In this document: piece after piece, positions 15,181 to 43,112 of the stretch
How positions within the stretch are numbered: the first letter of the stretch is position 1
How the letters are laid out: each line of letters begins with the position of its first letter
Assembly: GCA_963761305.1 (NCBI GenBank)
Contig: CAVXGK010000002.1
Span: forward strand, 160,001-224,000
DNA length: 64,000 bases
Origin: an uncultured Gemmatimonadaceae bacterium
GTDB taxonomy: Bacteria > Gemmatimonadota > Gemmatimonadetes > Gemmatimonadales > Gemmatimonadaceae
Direction of reading: 5' to 3'
The notes under the pieces: model-generated
Seen by the model: the letters and a program-made list of their open reading frames with translations, nothing else
Databases searched by the model: none
Told to the model about the DNA's origin: nothing
Position numbers and translations under genes: made by a program

Positions 15181-17883
15181 TCAGAGCCAGGAGCCGAAGC
15201 GCCGAATGTACCAGCCTTTCACGATCTGCGTCAGCACGGAATACGACAGCAGGATCACGACGAGCCAGGCGAAGTAGCTCGTCGGAAGCGGCACGAGTCC
15301 CAGTTTTGCGCCGAGCGGAATGAACGGCAACACGAGACCGGCGGCGATGATCGCGCCGGTGGTGAACAACACCGGCAGCGTCGCGCGGCTCTGGACGAAG
15401 GGCAGCTTGGCGGTGCGAATCATGTGGACGATGAGCGTCTGCGTCGCCAACGACTCGATGAACCATCCCGACTGAAACAACGCCTGCCGTGCCGGCGCGT
15501 TGGCGCGGAACACGTACCACATCACGAGAAACGTGACGACGTCGAAGATCGAGCTGATCGGCCCGATGAAAATCATGAATCGGCCGATGTCGTCGGCCCG
15601 CCATTGCCGCGGAACCCGGATGTACTCCGGGTCCATGTCGTCCCACGGAATCGCCGCCTGCGAGAAATCGTACAGCAAATTCACCGTCAGCAGCTGCACG
15701 GGAAGCATGGGGAGAAACGGCAGAAACGCGCTGGCGATCAGCACACTAAAAACGTTTCCGAAGTTCGAGCTCGCCGTCATCTTGATGTACTTGATCGTGT
15801 TGCCGAAGGTGCGACGCCCTTCGACCACGCCCTCCTCGAGCACCATCAGACTTTTCTCGAGGAGGATGATGTCCGCCGACTCCTTGGCGATGTCCACCGC
15901 CGAGTCGACCGAGACGCCGACGTCGGCCTGACGCAGCGCGCCGGCGTCGTTGATGCCGTCGCCCAGAAAGCCGACCGTGTGGCCGCGCGCCCTGAGCGAG
16001 CGCACGATGCGCGTCTTGTCGTCGGGCGTGAGCTTGGCGAACACCCTGTGCTCGGCGGCGATCGCGCCGACAGCGGCGTCGTCCAATCCGGCGAGCTCCT
16101 GTCCGAGCACGATGTGCCCGACGTCGAGACCGACGTCGCGGCAAATCTTGCGCGTCACCAGATCGTTGTCGCCGGTGAGGATCTTGACGGTGATCCCCTG
16201 TGCGGCAAGCGCTTTCAGCGCCGGTCCGGCGGACTCCTTCGGCGGATCGAGGAAGCCGATGAATCCGGCAAGGACCATGTCGGACTCGTCGGCGATCGAG
16301 TAGGGGCCGTGCGTCGTGGGAAAGAGCCGATACGCCACGGCTACGACGCGAAACCCGTCCTCGTTCATCTCGGCGACCAGCTCGCGGGCATCCTCGCGGC
16401 GTTCCGCTTCGAGTTCGACGACCTGCGCCTCTCCGTCGTGCGCGCGTTCGTCGCGCACGCGTGTGCAAGCGGCGAGAATCTCTTCGGCCGCGCCCTTGCA
16501 GATGAGCTGATGGTCCTTGCGTTCGTGGTCGACGACGACCGACATCCGGCGCCGGGTGAAGTCGAACGGGATCTCGTCGACTTTGCCGTACGCCTTGTCG
16601 ATCGCCAGCTCTCGCTGCAACTCGGCGTGGTCGAGCACCGCGACGTCGAGCAGGTTCTTGAGTCCCGTCTGGTAGAAGCTGTTCAGGTAGGCGAGCGCGA
16701 GGACGAAATCGTCTTCCTCGCCCACGACGTTGACGTGCCGCTCCAGCACGACCTTGTCCTGCGTGAGCGTGCCGGTCTTGTCGGTGCACAGCACGTCCAT
16801 CGCGCCGAAATTCTGAATCGAGTTGAGGCGCTTTACGACGGTCTTGCGACGCGCCATCGTCACGGCGCCTTTCGCCAGATTCGTCGTGACGATCATCGGC
16901 AGCATCTCGGGGGTGAGCCCGACGGCGACGGCGAGGCCGAACAGCAGTGCCTCGACCCAATTGCCCTTGCTGAAGCCATTGAGCAGGAAGACGATCGGCA
17001 CCATCACGGCGATGAACCGGATGAAGAGCCAGCTCACCTTCTGTACGCCGACGTCGAACGCCGTCTCCACGCGCGGGCCGCCGAGACCTTTCGCCAGCCG
17101 GCCGAAGCTGGTATCGCCGCCCGTCGCGACGACGGCCGCCGTTGCGGTGCCGCTCACGACGCTCGTGCCCATGAAGCAGACCGTCGGCAGCTCGGTCAGC
17201 GATGGCGCGCCACTCGGCCGCATCGCGCGATCCACCTTCTCGACCGGCAGCGCCTCGCCGGTGAGCGACGCCTGGCTCACGAACAGGTCCTTCGCGGCGA
17301 CGACGCGCACGTCGGCCGGGATCATGTCGCCGGCCGAGAGATACACGATGTCGCCCGGCACGAGCTCGTCCATCGGGATCTCGCGTCGGCGCGTGGCGGG
17401 CGTGCTGTCCGGTTCGAACTCGTCGCCCGCGCGCTCGACCGCGGTGCTCGTACGAACCAAGGCGCGCAGCGCCTGCGCGGACTTGCCCGAGCGAAATTCC
17501 TGGACGAAGCGGAGTCCGGTGCTGAACACGACCATCGCGCCGATGACGGTCATCGCCTCGTTGTCGCCCGTCAGGCCCGACACGACGGCGAGCGTCGTCA
17601 GCAAGAAGTTGAACGGGTTGGCGAAGGCGCGGGCCAGCTCGGCGTACCAGCTCGGCGGTTTCTCGTGCGCGACCTCGTTGCGTCCGTAGCGCTGGCGACG
17701 CGCCAGGACTTCGTCGTCGGTCAGGCCTTGGCGATCGGTGTCGAGCGACGAGTACGCCGACTCCGGGTCGCAGTAGGCGAGCTCGATGAGGCGCGCGTCC
17801 AGCACCGCGGAGCCCTTCCGGGCACCGTTCTTCGCCGAAGAGGCGGGGCCGCGCGCCGGAGCGCCCGGAATGCTCGAGGCCAT
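15181..17883 (-). CDS. mgtA: Magnesium-translocating P-type ATPase
   Basis: LTGEA, GLTPEMLP, DKTGTLT, GDGINDA, SSNFGN, QSGWF-x-E motifs. Confidence 0.95.
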   Translation of the reverse strand: MASSIPGAPARGPASSAKNGARKGSAVLDARLIELAYCDPESAYSSLDTDRQGLTDDEVLARRQRYGRNEVAHEKPPSWYAELARAFANPFNFLLTTLAVVSGLTGDNEAMTVIGAMVVFSTGLRFVQEFRSGKSAQALRALVRTSTAVERAGDEFEPDSTPATRRREIPMDELVPGDIVYLSAGDMIPADVRVVAAKDLFVSQASLTGEALPVEKVDRAMRPSGAPSLTELPTVCFMGTSVVSGTATAAVVATGGDTSFGRLAKGLGGPRVETAFDVGVQKVSWLFIRFIAVMVPIVFLLNGFSKGNWVEALLFGLAVAVGLTPEMLPMIVTTNLAKGAVTMARRKTVVKRLNSIQNFGAMDVLCTDKTGTLTQDKVVLERHVNVVGEEDDFVLALAYLNSFYQTGLKNLLDVAVLDHAELQRELAIDKAYGKVDEIPFDFTRRRMSVVVDHERKDHQLICKGAAEEILAACTRVRDERAHDGEAQVVELEAERREDARELVAEMNEDGFRVVAVAYRLFPTTHGPYSIADESDMVLAGFIGFLDPPKESAGPALKALAAQGITVKILTGDNDLVTRKICRDVGLDVGHIVLGQELAGLDDAAVGAIAAEHRVFAKLTPDDKTRIVRSLRARGHTVGFLGDGINDAGALRQADVGVSVDSAVDIAKESADIILLEKSLMVLEEGVVEGRRTFGNTIKYIKMTASSNFGNVFSVLIASAFLPFLPMLPVQLLTVNLLYDFSQAAIPWDDMDPEYIRVPRQWRADDIGRFMIFIGPISSIFDVVTFLVMWYVFRANAPARQALFQSGWFIESLATQTLIVHMIRTAKLPFVQSRATLPVLFTTGAIIAAGLVLPFIPLGAKLGLVPLPTSYFAWLVVILLSYSVLTQIVKGWYIRRFGSWL

Positions 17884-17997
17884 GGGTCGGTGGGGCTGCG
17901 CCGCGAACGCTAGAGAGATCGCGAACGGTGTCAACGCTTCGTCGTACTCGCTAATGGATCCTAGTGGGCAAATGGGTTGCCGCGTTACACTTCGTGT

Positions 17998-18126
17998 AGC
18001 GCGCGCTGGGGCGCCTCCTGTCCGCGGCAAGGGAGCAATCCCACCCAACTGGTTCGTTCGTTCCACGTTTCGAACCTTCTTCCGGCCTGTACTCAGCGGA
18101 CTTCAGGCGTACACGGGAGGAGGAAC
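17998..18126 (+). ncRNA. Candidate structured cis-regulatory leader RNA
   Basis: At least six complementary helices, a GNRA-capped hairpin, a 10-bp anti-SD/SD pairing, and a -10-like TACACT at 17986-17991. Confidence 0.6.
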
Positions 18127-21100
18127 ATGTCCAGGCGTATTGCGCCCACGGATTCCCTCGAGAGTCTGAAGAGGGAGGCGAAGCGCTGGCTCAAGGCGCT
18201 TCGCGAGGACGTCGAGGACGCGCGCGACCGATTCGCGAAAGCGCTCCCCGACGCGACGGACTCGCCGACGCTCCGCACTATCCAGCACGCCCTCGCGCGA
18301 GAGTTTGGGTTTTCCGGGTGGACGGCGCTCAAGCAACACCTCGAGGCGTCCGCGACCGGCGCGCGCGCCGACGCGGCGATCGTGTCGCGGTTTCTCGACA
18401 ACGCGTGCCCTGACCATCACGTGCGCGGCGGCCCGGACCACGTCCGCGCCCGCGGCACGGCCATGCGGTTGCTCGAGCGGTACCCGGAGATCGCCAATGC
18501 GAGTTTCTATACGAAGGTCGTGTGCGGCGACCTCGCCGGCGTCCTTGGCGATCTCGACGCGAATCCGGAACTGGCCACGGCTCGAGATGGTCCGCCGCGG
18601 CCGAAGCGATCGGAGGCAGGCAATTCACGCGATCTCCTGACGAAGGACTGGGGACCGAAGGGCTGGACGCCGCTCCTCTATCTCTGCTTCACCCGCCTGC
18701 CGCTCGACGCGGTGAGCGAGAACGCGGTCGCGATCGCGACGGCACTCCTCGACCGGGGCGCGGACCCGAACGACTTCTTCATGGCCGGCGACAGCCGGTA
18801 CACGCCGTTGGTCGGCGCGATCGGCGAAGGGGAAGAGGATCGTCCGCCGCACGCGAGACGTGACGAGTTGGTGCGACTGCTCTTGGATCGCGGCGCCGAG
18901 TTCGCGTCGTCGCTGGGCAACTACGGCGGGCAGGTGATCTACAACATTCATTTCCACGGCCACGTGTTGTGGTACCTGAAGCTGATGCATGAGTACTCGG
19001 TGCGACGAGGCCGCGCCGCCGACTGGGACGATCCGGCGTGGTCCATGCTCGGGCAGGGCGGCTACGGCGACGGCGCGCGCTGGCACCTCTCGATCGCCGT
19101 GCAACACAACGACCTCGAGTTGGCCGAGTGGTGCCTCGCGCATGGAGCGAATCCAAACGCGCCTCCCGCGAACGCGAAGACCTTGCCGCAGCGTACGCTG
19201 TACGAAGAAGCGATGCGCCGCGGTGAGACGGAGATGGCCGAGTTGTTCGTGCGGTACGGGGCGCCGCGCACCGCGGTCGAGCTGTCGCCGGTCGAAGCGC
19301 TCACCGCGGCGGCGATGCGCCTCGATCGCGACGCGGTGCGCGCCCATCTCTCGCGGCATCCGGACCTGACGGCGGCGCCCCAGCCGCTCGACATGGCCGC
19401 GAGCGAGAACCGGGCCGACGTCGTCGCGTTGCTCCTCGACGTCGGCATCTCGCCCGACGTCGCCAACCGGCAGAACGAACGGCCGCTTCATCTCGCGGCG
19501 TACGCGAACGCGCTCGACGTGGCGACGCTTCTCATTGCCCATGGCGCGGAGATCGATCCCGTCGAGTCGAACTGGAGCAACACGCCGCTCGGCGCCGCGG
19601 TGTACTCCCAGCACCAGGCGATGATCGATCTGCTGAGCCGATACAGCCGCGACATCTGGGAGCTCGCGTATGCCGGAAAGCTCGAGCGCCTGCGCGACGT
19701 GCTCGCCGACGATCCCGATGGCGCTCGCGCCGCCAGCGGGGGGCAGACGCCGCTCATGTGGCTCCCGCCCGACGACGAATCGCGCGCGATGGCGATCGCT
19801 CGGCTGCTCATTGCCAACGGCGCCGATCCGTCGCCGCAAGACGCGAACGGAATGAGCGCCGCCGACCGAGCGGAACGACTGAGCATGTTCGACCTCGCCG
19901 CGATGCTGCGTCGTGCCTCGACGCCGGCGGCGCGCGCCGCCGTGGAACGGTTTCAGCGCGGAGCGGTGAATCTGCTCGACGCCTATCGCACCGGCACGCC
20001 CGAGGCGATGCAACGTCACTGGGCCGACACGTGGCATCGCCGCTCGTGGGAGGCGATGCGCCGCTACGTCCAGCTTGACCTGGGACGACCACCGGCGGGC
20101 GAGGGCGAGGACGTGCCGATCGCGCTGGGCGACGCGCGCTGGCTCATCATGCGTGACAACGGCTTCGCGAGCTGGGAATCGTTCATCGAGCACACGATCG
20201 ACCAGGCGGCGAGCCCGCGACCGCTCGCCTCCGCGCCGTTTCGCTTGCTGTCGAAGCCGACCGAAGAACTCGCCCCCGCGGTCGAGCGGACGCGCGATTG
20301 GGACGCCGCGATCGCGATGCTCCGCGCCGGCGGGCTGCCCGGACTCGACGCGAACGGACAGATGACCGACGACGTCCTCGAGCGAATCTCGCGTCTCGAG
20401 CACGTCAGCGTGCTCCGGCTCGGCGGCTCGAAACACCTCACCGACGCCGGCGTCGCCCACCTGGCCCGCATGACCGGGCTGCGCGAGCTGGATCTGGGCG
20501 GCTGCCCGATCAGCGATCGCTCATTGGAGATCCTTGGACGGCTGCCCAATCTCGAGAAGGTCGGTCTGTGGCGGACGGGCATCAGCGACGCCGGGGTCGG
20601 GCATCTCGCTAAGAGTCCGCGGCTCGTCGAGGTGGATCTCGCGTGGACGCCCACCGGCGACGGAGCCCTGCGCGCGCTGGCCGGAAAAGAGACGCTCACG
20701 CATTTCCGCAGCGGCGATCACGTCACCGACGAGGGCCTCCGGGCGCTCCACGACTATCCCGTGTTCAAATCGTGGCGCGGCGGCGAGGTCGTGCTCGGAC
20801 TCACGTCGCCCGAGGCACAGCCGAACATGCTGTTCCTGCGGGGAACTCTCACCGATCGCGGGCTCGCCAGCCTCGTCGGGCTCGACGGACTGTTCGGTCT
20901 CAACATCGACGACAGCGGCTTGGCCATTACGGCGGGCGGATTGGGACCGCTTGTCTCGCTCCCACACCTCGGCTTCCTCGCCTTCGACGCGACCGACGAC
21001 GCGATGCCGTACATCGCCGCGATGCCGCATTTGCGATGTCTCATGTGCCAGGACACCAGCGCCGGCGACGACGGCTTCGTCGCGCTCGGCCGCTCGCGGT

Positions 21101-21630
21101 CGATCGAGTACATCTGGGGTCGCCGCTGCCACAACTTGCGCTCGGGCGGCTTCGCGGCGCTCGCCGAGATTCCCACGCTCCGCTCGCTGTCGGTGAGTTG
21201 CAAGAACGTGGACGACGCCGGATTGTCGGCGCTGCCGCGGTTTCCGTCGTTGCGGGAGCTGATGCCGATGGACGTTCCCGACGACGGCTATCGGCACATC
21301 GGGCGCTGTGAAAAGCTCGAGTCGCTCGTGTTGATGTACTGCCGGGAGACGGGCGACGTTGCGACGTCTCACATCACGGGACTGGCGAACCTCAAGAAGT
21401 ATTTCGCGAGCTACACGCGAGCGACCGATCGGACGCTGCAGTTCTTGGCCGGCATCCCGTCGCTGGAATCCATCGACCTCTCGGCAATTCCCGGCATGAC
21501 GAACGCGGGGGTCGCCGCGCTCACGGCGCTGCCGCGGCTTCGCTTCCTCCGGCTGTCGGGAATGCAGCACGTCGATCTCGAGCGTGTCCGGTCGTTCAGC
21601 CCCACCGTTCGCGTCGAGCTGTCGCCATGA
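18127..21630 (+). CDS. Ankyrin-repeat plus leucine-rich-repeat protein with a duplicated small helical domain
   Basis: Strong RBS GGAGGAGG. Ankyrin motifs (TPL, LLDRGADPN, PLHLAA) and ~24-aa LRRs (LRELDLGGCPISD). ARE-x-GF-x2-W type motif occurs twice. Confidence 0.88.
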   Translation: MSRRIAPTDSLESLKREAKRWLKALREDVEDARDRFAKALPDATDSPTLRTIQHALAREFGFSGWTALKQHLEASATGARADAAIVSRFLDNACPDHHVRGGPDHVRARGTAMRLLERYPEIANASFYTKVVCGDLAGVLGDLDANPELATARDGPPRPKRSEAGNSRDLLTKDWGPKGWTPLLYLCFTRLPLDAVSENAVAIATALLDRGADPNDFFMAGDSRYTPLVGAIGEGEEDRPPHARRDELVRLLLDRGAEFASSLGNYGGQVIYNIHFHGHVLWYLKLMHEYSVRRGRAADWDDPAWSMLGQGGYGDGARWHLSIAVQHNDLELAEWCLAHGANPNAPPANAKTLPQRTLYEEAMRRGETEMAELFVRYGAPRTAVELSPVEALTAAAMRLDRDAVRAHLSRHPDLTAAPQPLDMAASENRADVVALLLDVGISPDVANRQNERPLHLAAYANALDVATLLIAHGAEIDPVESNWSNTPLGAAVYSQHQAMIDLLSRYSRDIWELAYAGKLERLRDVLADDPDGARAASGGQTPLMWLPPDDESRAMAIARLLIANGADPSPQDANGMSAADRAERLSMFDLAAMLRRASTPAARAAVERFQRGAVNLLDAYRTGTPEAMQRHWADTWHRRSWEAMRRYVQLDLGRPPAGEGEDVPIALGDARWLIMRDNGFASWESFIEHTIDQAASPRPLASAPFRLLSKPTEELAPAVERTRDWDAAIAMLRAGGLPGLDANGQMTDDVLERISRLEHVSVLRLGGSKHLTDAGVAHLARMTGLRELDLGGCPISDRSLEILGRLPNLEKVGLWRTGISDAGVGHLAKSPRLVEVDLAWTPTGDGALRALAGKETLTHFRSGDHVTDEGLRALHDYPVFKSWRGGEVVLGLTSPEAQPNMLFLRGTLTDRGLASLVGLDGLFGLNIDDSGLAITAGGLGPLVSLPHLGFLAFDATDDAMPYIAAMPHLRCLMCQDTSAGDDGFVALGRSRSIEYIWGRRCHNLRSGGFAALAEIPTLRSLSVSCKNVDDAGLSALPRFPSLRELMPMDVPDDGYRHIGRCEKLESLVLMYCRETGDVATSHITGLANLKKYFASYTRATDRTLQFLAGIPSLESIDLSAIPGMTNAGVAALTALPRLRFLRLSGMQHVDLERVRSFSPTVRVELSP

Positions 21631-21644
21631 ATGGCCGCCCCGAC

Positions 21645-24068
21645 TCAGGGCGGCGGCAGCACTCGGCACGCGTGCGGACCCGTGAATCGTGTCTCGTCGA
21701 GACCGACGCGTCGCACGAGCGTTGCAAACCGTGGGGTTTGGCGGACGAGGTCGTACTCTTGGCCGCACAGCGGTGCGTAGGACGGCCAGATCGCACGGAG
21801 GTCGGTGGCTCGCTCCAATGCATCCAGCGCGCGGGTCGTGTCGCCGACGCCCATATAAGCGAACGCGATGACGACCTCGCTCGCCGAGGTGCGCGGGCGA
21901 CGTTCCATCTCGCGCGCCATCGCGAGCGCGCTGTCCCGCTGGCCGGCGCGGCCGAACAGATACGCGAGGTTCCCCGACATCGGCGCCGGCGCCGATCGAA
22001 AGTGGCGCGCCAGGCGAATGGCATCGTCGAATCGGTGCGCCGCGCCGAACGCGAGCGCCGCGAAGTCGATCGCGGGCGCCACCGTCGAGTCGATCTCGAG
22101 CGCGATCTTCGTCTGCGCGATCGCGTCGTCGACCCGGCCGAGGGCCAGGTCCGCGTTGATGACCCACGCCGGCGCGACGCCGGAAACCGGGTCGAGCTGC
22201 TGCGCGGTCCGCAGCTCCGCGAACGCATCCTGCGGGCGCCCGACGGAAATGAGAAATCGCGCATACTGCGTGTGTGCCGACGCGTCGGACGGATCGAGCG
22301 CCAACGCCCGACGGAATTCGCCGCCGGCCGCGTCCCACTCCCACGCGTGGGCGTGCATCATCGCGAGCGCCAGATGCGCCTCGGCCTGCGAGCTGTCGAG
22401 CGAGAGTGCGCGGTTGGCCGCCTTCTCGACGCGATCGTGGAGATCGGCGGTCGACGCGCTGCCAAAGTAGGGAAAGTATTCGAGGGTCTCTGCCAAGCCC
22501 GCGTAGGCCGGAGCGAACATGGAGTCCTTGTCGATCGCAACTTGAAACAGGTTCGCGGCCTCGGTGACCGATCGACGGGACAGAACGAGAAAGCGCGCTC
22601 GCAGGTATGCGTCGTGTGCTTCCGGATTGGTCGTCGCGCCTGGCGCGCTGGTCGCCCCGCGCGAGCCCGCGGCATCGCCGGGCGCGCCGGGCCGGATTCC
22701 CAAACGCACCGCCAGCGCCGCCGTGATGGCTCTGGTGATGCGGTCTTCGAGCGCGAATACGTCTCGCGCATCGCCGTCATAGCGATCCTGCCAGATCTCG
22801 GTATTGTCGGCGGCACTCGTCACTTGCACTCCGACCCGAATCCGCTCGCCTTCGCGACGTACGCTCCCTTGAACGACGAAGCCCGCGCCGAGCGCTCGGC
22901 CGACGCTGCGCGCGTCGAGATCGCGGCGTCCCTTGTATTGGAAAGCCCTCGATCGAGCCGCGATCTGAATCCCGTCCACCTTTCCGAGCGCCGTCGCCAG
23001 CTCATCGGTCATGCCGTCGGCGAAATACTCCTGCGCCGAGTCGCCGCCGACGTTGGTGAGCGGCAACACCGCGAGCACGCGTTTGGACGGCGAGCCGCTC
23101 GTGCTCGCGCCGCGACCGAAAGCGACGTATGCACCGGCGCCGATCAGTAGAACGGCTGCGCCCCCCGCCACACCGCGGACGAGCGCGCGGCGCGGCGCTC
23201 GAAAGGAGATCGGTCCGGCCGGCGTGATGCCGCCTTCGAGACGCGTGAGCAGCTCGGCGCCGGACTGTGGTCGATCGCCCGGGTCCTTCGCCAAACACTG
23301 CGCAACGAGGCTCGCCAACGGCTCTGGCGTGTCGGCCCGCTTCACGCCCACGTTCGGCGCCTGCTCGGAGAAGTGCGCCGCGAGCGTCTGTTGCATCGAG
23401 CGACCGTGAAACGGCGTCTCACCGGCGAGCACCTCGTACGCAAGGCAACCGAACGCGTAGACGTCGGCGCGGCAGTCCACGTGCGGATCACCGGCGGCCT
23501 GCTCGGGCGCCATGTAGGCCGGTGTGCCGACGCCCGATCCCGCCTGCGTGAGCGTGGCGTCGCTCCCTTCGGTGCGCGCCGCGCTGATGGCTTTCGCGAT
23601 GCCGAAGTCGGTGACCACTGCTGCGCCGCCCGAGATCAACACGTTGTCCGGTTTGATGTCGCGGTGCACCACGCCTCGCTCGTGCGCGTACGCCAGCGCC
23701 CGAGCCACATCGCGAAGCACGTTGATGACTTCGGAAATGGGCAGCGCGCCGGTTTTGATGAGGCGGTCGCGCAGCGAGAGCCCGTCCACGAACGGCATCG
23801 TGTAGTACGGCAGGCCGGCCGCTTCGCCCGAAGACAAAAGCGGGACGATGTTCGCCTGCTGCAGCGAAGCGGCCAGCCGGATCTCGCGCGCGAAGCGGCT
23901 CGCCGACACGCCCGCAGCCAATTCGGGCGAGATCACCTTGATCACGACGGTGCGGCCGAGCGAGGTCTCCGTCGCCACGAACACGCGCGACATCCCGCCG
24001 CGCGTGAGTTCGCGCTGCACGCCGTACGTGCCGTCCAATGCCGCCTGCAGTTGGTCGCGGAGCTCCAT
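21645..24068 (-). CDS. Hanks-type Ser/Thr kinase with TM segment, TolB-N-like domain and TPR repeats
   Basis: GGMS-x-V, VIK, HRDIKPDN, DFG, GTPAYMAPE; AVLP-x2-N...YFADGMTDEL; TPR helices. Confidence 0.93.
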   Translation of the reverse strand: MELRDQLQAALDGTYGVQRELTRGGMSRVFVATETSLGRTVVIKVISPELAAGVSASRFAREIRLAASLQQANIVPLLSSGEAAGLPYYTMPFVDGLSLRDRLIKTGALPISEVINVLRDVARALAYAHERGVVHRDIKPDNVLISGGAAVVTDFGIAKAISAARTEGSDATLTQAGSGVGTPAYMAPEQAAGDPHVDCRADVYAFGCLAYEVLAGETPFHGRSMQQTLAAHFSEQAPNVGVKRADTPEPLASLVAQCLAKDPGDRPQSGAELLTRLEGGITPAGPISFRAPRRALVRGVAGGAAVLLIGAGAYVAFGRGASTSGSPSKRVLAVLPLTNVGGDSAQEYFADGMTDELATALGKVDGIQIAARSRAFQYKGRRDLDARSVGRALGAGFVVQGSVRREGERIRVGVQVTSAADNTEIWQDRYDGDARDVFALEDRITRAITAALAVRLGIRPGAPGDAAGSRGATSAPGATTNPEAHDAYLRARFLVLSRRSVTEAANLFQVAIDKDSMFAPAYAGLAETLEYFPYFGSASTADLHDRVEKAANRALSLDSSQAEAHLALAMMHAHAWEWDAAGGEFRRALALDPSDASAHTQYARFLISVGRPQDAFAELRTAQQLDPVSGVAPAWVINADLALGRVDDAIAQTKIALEIDSTVAPAIDFAALAFGAAHRFDDAIRLARHFRSAPAPMSGNLAYLFGRAGQRDSALAMAREMERRPRTSASEVVIAFAYMGVGDTTRALDALERATDLRAIWPSYAPLCGQEYDLVRQTPRFATLVRRVGLDETRFTGPHACRVLPPP

Positions 24069-43038: not shown

Positions 43039-43112
43039 CGGGACGTAGCGCAGTCCGGTAGCGCACCTGAATGGGGTTCAGGGGGTCGCGGGTTCAAATC
43101 CCGCCGTCCCGA
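43039..43112 (+). tRNA. tRNA-Pro(GGG), CCA not encoded
   Basis: Acceptor CGGGACG/CGTCCCG, D arm, anticodon stem CCTGA/TCAGG with loop ATGGGGT, T arm GCGGG-TTCAAAT-CCCGC. Confidence 0.97.

Follow-up and report, generated by a model that had tools for sequence, protein, structure and literature searches.

The leader and its gene

The window analysed here is a stretch of 64,000 nucleotides (nt) from an uncultured Gemmatimonadaceae bacterium (assembly GCA_963761305.1, contig CAVXGK010000002.1, positions 160,001 to 224,000 of the forward strand). A preliminary description, made from its letters alone, had pointed to a leader RNA in front of a gene for a protein with ankyrin repeats and leucine-rich repeats (LRR). 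Comparison with homologues supports a conserved cis-acting RNA, uncatalogued and pseudoknotted, which begins shortly after a promoter and is predicted to bury the ribosome-binding site. The leader precedes genes that share one N-terminal helical domain, and it is tentatively proposed that this domain binds the leader and represses translation. The features of the locus are listed below, with the Shine-Dalgarno sequence abbreviated SD. The swap-test z values refer to 123 homologues and are inflated, since kin are not independent.

17986..17991, + strand: -10-like hexamer TACACT; transcription is predicted to start near 17998; this copy has no -35 match
18001..18014, + strand: hairpin P1, 18001-18004 with 18011-18014 (swap z 16.3)
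18007..18047, + strand: pseudoknot 1 (PK1), UGGG of the P1 loop (18007-18010) with CCCA (18044-18047); the two top pairs of the de novo scan
18017..18027, + strand: P1.1, two base pairs of CC (18017-18) with GG (18026-27), closing the GUCCGC loop (swap z 4.4)
18020..18101, + strand: P2, long-range loop-loop helix of GUCCGC (18020-25) with GCGGAC (18096-101), covarying in alignment A10
18031..18042, + strand: hairpin P3, GGGA-GCAA-UCCC; stem conserved (swap z 14.8), loop not
18048..18074, + strand: variable linker (17-36 nt among homologues), in which this lineage can have a local hairpin (z 2.6)
18075..18123, + strand: 3' hairpin composed of P5 and P6, with GCGGAC in its loop
18075-84 with 18114-23: P5, anti-SD CCUUCUUCCG with CGGGAGGAGG (swap z 14.1, duplex test z -18.5)
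18085-89 with 18104-08: P6, GCCUG with CAGGC (swap z 9.8)
18127..18351, + strand: N-terminal helical domain (some 65-75 residues), related to the N-terminal part of Pfam Glyoxalase_8; proposed RNA-binding partner
18127..21630, + strand: ankyrin and LRR gene; 1167-residue protein with the N-terminal domain, ankyrin repeats, a degenerate second N-terminal domain near residues 600-686, and leucine-rich repeats

The ATG at 18127 is the start codon of the ankyrin and LRR gene. An in-frame start at TTG 17977, which would imply reading through the leader, is unsupported, and a leader peptide was likewise rejected: no start is conserved in the homologues, and the linker lengths show no 3-nt period. 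No terminator was found between leader and gene.

Structure and covariation

All segments named in the preliminary description were found where it placed them, with the complementarities as written. Its wording "highly structured" did not hold for the single sequence, which has a minimum free energy of -54.1 kcal/mol at z -0.76, with 42 of 200 shuffles equally good; four sub-windows, including the other strand, gave folding z values from +0.34 to -1.76, none significant. Since the single sequence was not more structured than chance, support for an RNA was sought in homologues. There, covarying helices were found, which confirmed the observation. Covariation, not single-sequence stability, is the chief evidence for the RNA.

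After redundancy filtering at 93%, alignment A4 contains 123 sequences, of which 35 were selected through the protein and 88 through a DNA pattern. The pattern fixes GUCCGCGG, so the core of the pattern-picked rows is partly fixed by construction. Alignment A10 contains 52 rows, all protein-selected, and its model is without both pseudoknots. A de novo covariation scan of A4 with 40 tree-based nulls placed 18008:18046, 18007:18047 and one P3 pair above every null, followed by 18088:18105 (E 0.08), 18033:18040 (E 0.22) and two anti-SD:SD pairs (E 0.8 and 1.7). A model of 34 pairs had 87.2% of cells paired and both sides changing at 23 pairs, against 44-56% paired when slid.

The UGGG:CCCA match, now PK1, gave a swap z of 15.4, and in A10 double changes were present at all four of its pairs. 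P1 occurs as GUGC/GCAC in L006 and as GCAUC/GAUGC in L013; only 58.8% of its cells are paired in a structure-blind alignment because its 5' arm shifts register. P1.1 is paired in 98.4% of cells, with AC/GU variants. P2 was tested on A10 because it is near-invariant in A4, partly by construction. Here 98.3% of cells were paired, and the GUCCGC:GCGGAC pairing was confirmed by compensatory changes at five of six pairs. A GGC:GCC extension of P2 was rejected (swap z 1.4).

Not all proposed helices fared as well. GCGCCU:AGGCGU (swap z 0.1) and UGUAC:GUACA (z 0.7) had to be abandoned, and GGUUCG:CGAACC, although complementary here, is weak and lies inside the variable linker. For the proposed GNRA hairpin, the stem was upheld but the GCAA tetraloop is not conserved in the alignment. 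The anti-SD:SD pairing that buries the ribosome-binding site was among the helices retained. The preliminary description had left the folds either pseudoknotted or mutually exclusive. They are pseudoknotted, whereas exclusive folds were not supported: the seven supported helices are mutually compatible and share no nucleotide, and six alternative pairings gave z values of -0.1 to -2.9, versus -18.5 for anti-SD:SD, with none covarying convincingly. Opening of the SD in the 3' hairpin alone was calculated to cost 13.9 kcal/mol in the window copy and a median of 12.2 kcal/mol in the 123 homologues. This cost was above that of the shuffled anti-SD arm in 122 of 123. In the leaders of L001 and L061, an extra hairpin with a second SD-like stretch lies downstream of the usual SD position, ahead of the start codon.

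Promoter and transcript

The proposed promoter hexamer TACACT is located at offset -34 from GUCCGC, in register with the homologues, whose -10-like hexamers peak at offsets -31 to -34, but there is no TTGACA-like -35 in the window copy. Same-genus orthologues have one, and the window copy may for this reason be weakly expressed. The motif TTG-N3-16/18 nt-NANNNT stands directly upstream in 65 of 121 homologues versus 8 of 501 control stretches. A consensus promoter scan of the window returned 0 promoters, and no conserved operator-like stretch was found upstream of the RNA. In RNA runs the leader was present in small shares only, as contigs of relatives, which is no evidence for expression of the window copy. 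A weak hint comes from four RNA-library contigs of relatives (two studies), all of which begin at 18004-18005.

Distribution of the leader

Four copies of the leader are present in the genome of origin, each preceding a gene with the same N-terminal helical domain, and a covariance model found exactly these four and no other targets. Within the phylum, the leader was present in all 37 distinct loci picked by protein (36 full, one 5' half only). Among cultured bacteria, Gemmatirosa kalamazoonensis carries on its plasmid 1 a leader with a TTGAC promoter and a domain gene. A DNA pattern scan gave at least 119 stretches and 6 viral matches. Among the matches listed, viral included, the domain was downstream in 92 of 125, and 89 of 93 full-length leaders preceded it. 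Of the remaining four, two end within 25 nt of a locus edge, the third has a gene that is broken early, and the fourth escaped the filter. Only one of the 6 pattern matches in viral contigs has the domain. The carriers among the matches listed are Gemmatimonadota, Acidobacteriota, Actinomycetota, Verrucomicrobiota, Planctomycetota, Pseudomonadota, Myxococcota, Armatimonadota (Chthonomonadales), Baltobacteraceae and Eisenbacteria, which we take to represent ten phyla.

Protein-picked loci around named Actinomycetota, Alphaproteobacteria, Acidobacteriota and Verrucomicrobiota had an in-place model match at E<=0.01 in 41 of 52 cases, a count that includes L188, a repeat of a training sequence. 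The other 11 comprise one weak short form, one false protein match, four partial domains, three divergent leaders recognised by eye and two full genes without leader. Conversely, 27 of 28 model-found loci examined in relatives (of about 100 matches) precede the domain. Leader and domain are paired nearly one to one, whatever cargo follows. The link is not to the ankyrin and LRR part: the leader tracks the N-terminal domain, and the cargo varies.

The N-terminal domain and its cargo

Profile comparison matched the domain to Glyoxalase_8 N-termini with a probability of 97.4 and to the N-terminal part of PRK05973 with a probability of 95.7. At E<=0.001 it was found in 11,311 protein clusters (50% identity), and its start lies no further than residue 22 in 148 of the 150 best of these 11,311 matches. 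Conserved residues are K15, K19, R58, Q53, A57, G61 and W65, with K or R at positions 15, 19 and 58 in 96, 99 and 89% of 105 sequences. The domain is basic; its net charge is above 0 in 92 of 105 sequences, with a median of +4. PDB and Atlas searches gave no named relative, Pfam HTH_6 matched weakly (E 0.16), and there was no Pfam match to ANTAR in the domain.

The cargo in 74 proteins was ankyrin in 61, LRR only in 3, Glyoxalase_8 only in 1 and none in 9. In the best 120 domain matches, 35 Ank_2, 12 Clp_N, 8 LRR_14, 3 ClpX finger, 3 FliM and 2 FliG_C were observed, and the leader-linked genes have no common pathway, metabolic or transport theme. Tandem copies of the domain are present in 10 proteins. 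DNA likeness between the window and LRR-type paralogues spans leader and domain (17991-18341 against L307, 17998-18323 against L272), ends right after the domain and returns in the LRR part. On these grounds the window's gene is a fusion, and the leader-domain block moves as a unit.

Related leader classes

A second leader class was found at Glyoxalase_8 loci. Of 32 such loci, a number that leaves out two C-terminal matches and one repeat, 25 had it by regular expression and 4 by eye, while 3 had other leaders. In the 25, PK1, P2, P3, P6 and P5 were supported (swap z 6.8-7.7); in this class II no support was obtained for P1 (z -0.2, with poorly placed windows) or P1.1 (z -3.5). The class, represented by L241 (1687-1837, - strand) and 24 further loci of Pseudomonadota, has the core GCUCGC/GCGAGC with UGGUGAA and is uncatalogued.

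One of the three other leaders at Glyoxalase_8 loci led to DUF2087 genes. All four DUF2087 genes with the domain matched the Rfam family COG3860 above cut-off, and the sole one without it (L320) did not match. At 7 of 12 COG3860 loci that could be parsed, the seven nucleotides that follow the first hairpin pair with part of the loop of a hairpin further downstream. This P2-like pairing scored 18.7 in the own combination versus 15.5 when swapped, a difference reached in 5 of 5000 permutations. COG3860 was observed to continue downstream, beyond the Rfam model, where it has an SD hairpin as well as a loop-loop helix (L319:1052-1108, L321, L322, L260 and L323-L329). The DUF2087 N-terminus matched Glyoxalase_8 N-termini with a probability of 95.8, so the link from the window's domain to DUF2087 appears to run through Glyoxalase_8.

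Three PRK05973 leaders (L316, L317 and L318) share a long-range CCCCUCC/GGAGGGG pair, whose partner is an SD-like decoy in a hairpin loop, and have no Rfam match; an Rfam match to SorX in L317 lies downstream on the opposite strand. The layout was recognised only by eye in these three loci and in L219, L223 and L258. A short leader (L195, L217, L220 and L229) precedes domain-glyoxalase fusions at four loci. It contains P1, PK1, an extended P1.1, which is there a full hairpin, and P3, without P2 or SD hairpin. The start codon stands about 15-25 nt behind the pseudoknot, and three of the four have no clear SD by eye.

A layout descriptor was matched by 0 of 100 shuffles in L218, L259 and L241, by 1 in L260, 2 in L233 and 13 in the window; in leaderless controls 24 and 21 of 100 matched. 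It did not find the layout in L219, L223 and L258. With a looser descriptor the matching shuffles were 0 for L322, 1 for L319, 5 for L317, 8 for L321, 27 for L316, 27 for L318 and 13 for the L320 control, and the layout seen by eye was not recovered in L219, L223, L258 and L323. The core letters differ by class on one layout (GUCCGC, GCUCGC, GUCGCCG), and each domain subfamily has its own leader sequence with the same layout.

Comparison with known RNA systems

A search of Rfam with 17700-18300 at E<=10 gave two chance matches and none for the leader, and no ribozyme model, hepatitis delta virus-like or other, matched it. Among the 20 and 19 related loci searched, neither the window's leader class nor the Glyoxalase_8 class had a match. 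The claim that no named Rfam family applies was thus correct for the window's leader, but its novelty is tempered by a distant branch of the same layout, COG3860 (RF02940, Cis-reg, 54 positions). In COG3860 the loop of the first hairpin (GCAG) pairs behind the second hairpin (CUGC), the equivalent of PK1. It also lies just behind a promoter, and its genes share the N-terminal match to Glyoxalase_8 given above. In contrast to the window's leader, it has different core letters without a sequence match, its second hairpin stands by eye before and not after the 3' strand of P1.1, and its Rfam model ends after the first pseudoknot; the window's gene encodes ankyrin repeats and LRR, not COG3860/DUF2087. 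The window's class is outside all Rfam families, and COG3860 is its closest relative by layout. The COG3860 motif is said to go back to Weinberg et al. in 2017.

Translational riboswitches with SD-burying pseudoknots are known, such as preQ1-II, SAM-II and ZTP. The window's leader resembles them in its pseudoknots, conserved core, SD pairing and wide phylogenetic range, but differs in having no Rfam match and genes without a metabolic theme. ANTAR proteins recognise twin-hairpin RNAs and, like the proteins described here, have a small helical domain joined to a variety of partners, together with a cognate leader RNA. The window's domain differs in its lack of a Pfam ANTAR match, and there is neither a terminator nor a second RNA target in the own genome. 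Autogenous translational operators are found in ribosomal-protein leaders, for example the rpsO/S15 pseudoknot. Unlike these, the window's domain has no known RNA-binding fold and no known second RNA target, and it is fused to many unrelated cargo domains. What is shared with them, and with the "protein-binding candidate" RNA class in the parts seen of Narunsky et al. 2024 (PMC11109978), is a structured 5' leader before the gene of the presumed binder and predicted control at the ribosome-binding site.

Titles and abstract openings of the literature gave no account of the window's leader. The main-text passages seen of PMC5737381 contain no mention of COG3860, DUF2087, ankyrin or glyoxalase; its supplements may describe COG3860 or related motifs. 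The searched terms were also not mentioned in the main text and one supplement of PMC8632094 or in 11 supplements of PMC6429828. The supplements of PMC11109978 may describe COG3860 or related motifs.

Proposed function and alternatives

The helices, their compatibility, the position from promoter to start codon and the pairing of leader with domain all come from sequence comparison. In the proposed mechanism the leader would fold into one compact, doubly pseudoknotted shape with the ribosome-binding site buried, and translation would begin at a low basal rate, with ribosomes arriving at the start for instance from the unstructured linker. The N-terminal domain would bind its own leader and lock the folded shape, repressing translation so that the protein limits its own amount. 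In the short form, bound protein would cover the start and block the ribosome. Promoter, leader and the first 65-70 codons would constitute a portable low-copy expression cassette, serving interaction or sensor domains such as ankyrin, LRR, Clp-N, ClpX zinc finger, glyoxalase and DUF2087.

A probability of roughly 45% is given to binding of the leader by its own domain with repression of translation. Repression is favoured because the conserved fold is the one with the SD buried, and because protein bound to the short form would cover the start. A protein-binding leader would also fit better than a metabolite aptamer, since the off-fold is conserved without an alternative, the partner is constant while the cargo is unrelated, and the core tracks the domain subfamilies. 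The wider view, held with somewhat less than even confidence, is a hitherto unrecognised superfamily of portable self-regulating cassettes (promoter, kissing-loop leader with two pseudoknots and a helical RNA-binding domain of about 60 residues) before thousands of unrelated proteins, in which RNA reading would be branch-specific and COG3860 would be the 5' half of one branch.

Several points weigh against repression by the own domain, besides the inflation of the swap-test values. Tight linkage of adjacent leader and domain is no proof of binding. Genes with the full domain but without leader occur in L203, in L280 and as the second gene in L304. Conversely, in L071 (1492-1561, - strand) a promoter and the 5' half of the leader stand directly before an unrelated membrane-protein gene without the domain, presumably stomatin/SPFH-like. 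No solved relative of the domain was found in the PDB below E 0.07, and direct comparison of the DUF2087 N-terminus with the window's domain was weak (probability 9.4). Finally, the SD hairpin is costly to open by itself, the message looks off without a repressor, and an activator fits at least equally well.

Such an activator is the alternative that survives best, though we consider it unlikely. The leader would be off by default and opened either by the same domain (positive feedback, perhaps with sensing by the cargo) or, more generally, by ribosomal protein S1, heat or ribosome stress. The SD is buried without a partner in nearly all homologues, as described above, and the lack of a clear SD in most short forms looks as if the pseudoknot aided initiation. 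The anti-SD could pair with an internal GGRAAGGG at about -7 kcal/mol, but this pairing does not covary (z -0.1). As to a general factor, class-specific sequences that track the domain subfamilies fit a dedicated partner better.

A riboswitch, in which a small molecule or ion would make the kissing fold more stable and govern how accessible the SD is, is rated lower and seems improbable. Two pseudoknots and an SD hairpin across the ten presumed phyla, with the expression platform overlapping the SD, are what such an element could look like, as is the near-invariant class I core (18020-18032, A18043 and 18096-18101), which is partly fixed by the search pattern. However, this core is almost entirely paired, and what the genes behind the leader have in common is a non-enzymatic domain, not a pathway. 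The sister classes keep the layout and change the core letters, which would be rare for a single ligand pocket.

Still less probable is a stable ribonucleoprotein of leader and protein with another job, perhaps as a stress or conflict module gated by RNA, or processing of the leader to a small RNA. The single leader per domain gene without other targets in the own genome and the tandem domain copies would suit a ribonucleoprotein, yet the conserved SD pairing points to translation control. The shared start of the four RNA-library contigs is weakly in favour of either variant, but contigs cannot show RNA ends, and no terminator separates the leader from its gene. It is very improbable that the fold arose by chance in G+C-rich DNA or that the element acts at the DNA level: the single sequence is indeed no better than its shuffles, 13 of 100 of which match the layout score, but chance is excluded by covariation, with compensatory and G-U changes in the pseudoknotted helices, and a DNA element lacks a conserved upstream operator-like stretch.

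The analysis defines an uncatalogued, widespread RNA fold tied to a large unannotated protein domain, and it offers a testable function for the N-terminal part of Pfam Glyoxalase_8 and for the orphan COG3860 motif. Should the domain recognise its own leader in a branch-specific manner, nature would here provide a set of small RNA-protein pairs, orthogonal to one another, for feedback on translation, and the domain would be a new RNA-binding fold. Otherwise the RNA would still be a strong candidate for an orphan switch, and one whose structure is clear.

Neighbouring genes

The gene upstream is divergent.

15181..17883, - strand: P-type ATPase gene with Pfam matches, a neighbour outside the leader system

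The ATPase is presumably MgtA-like, and no Rfam magnesium riboswitch was matched within the window. The ATPase gene is present in one same-genus orthologous locus and absent from another. The RNA was rejected as a leader of this gene, as a same-genus orthologue keeps the RNA without it. The ATPase gene has its own -35-like hexamer, a promoter-like TTGACA near 17934-17929 (- strand).

Downstream, the end of the ankyrin and LRR gene is 15 nt from a convergent gene at 21645-24068 (- strand; window 21627-21645), which from its translation we take to be a protein-kinase-like TPR gene. Because of this convergent gene, the ankyrin and LRR gene is probably transcribed alone. The sole Rfam match in the window at gathering score is a tRNA at 43039-43112 (+ strand).

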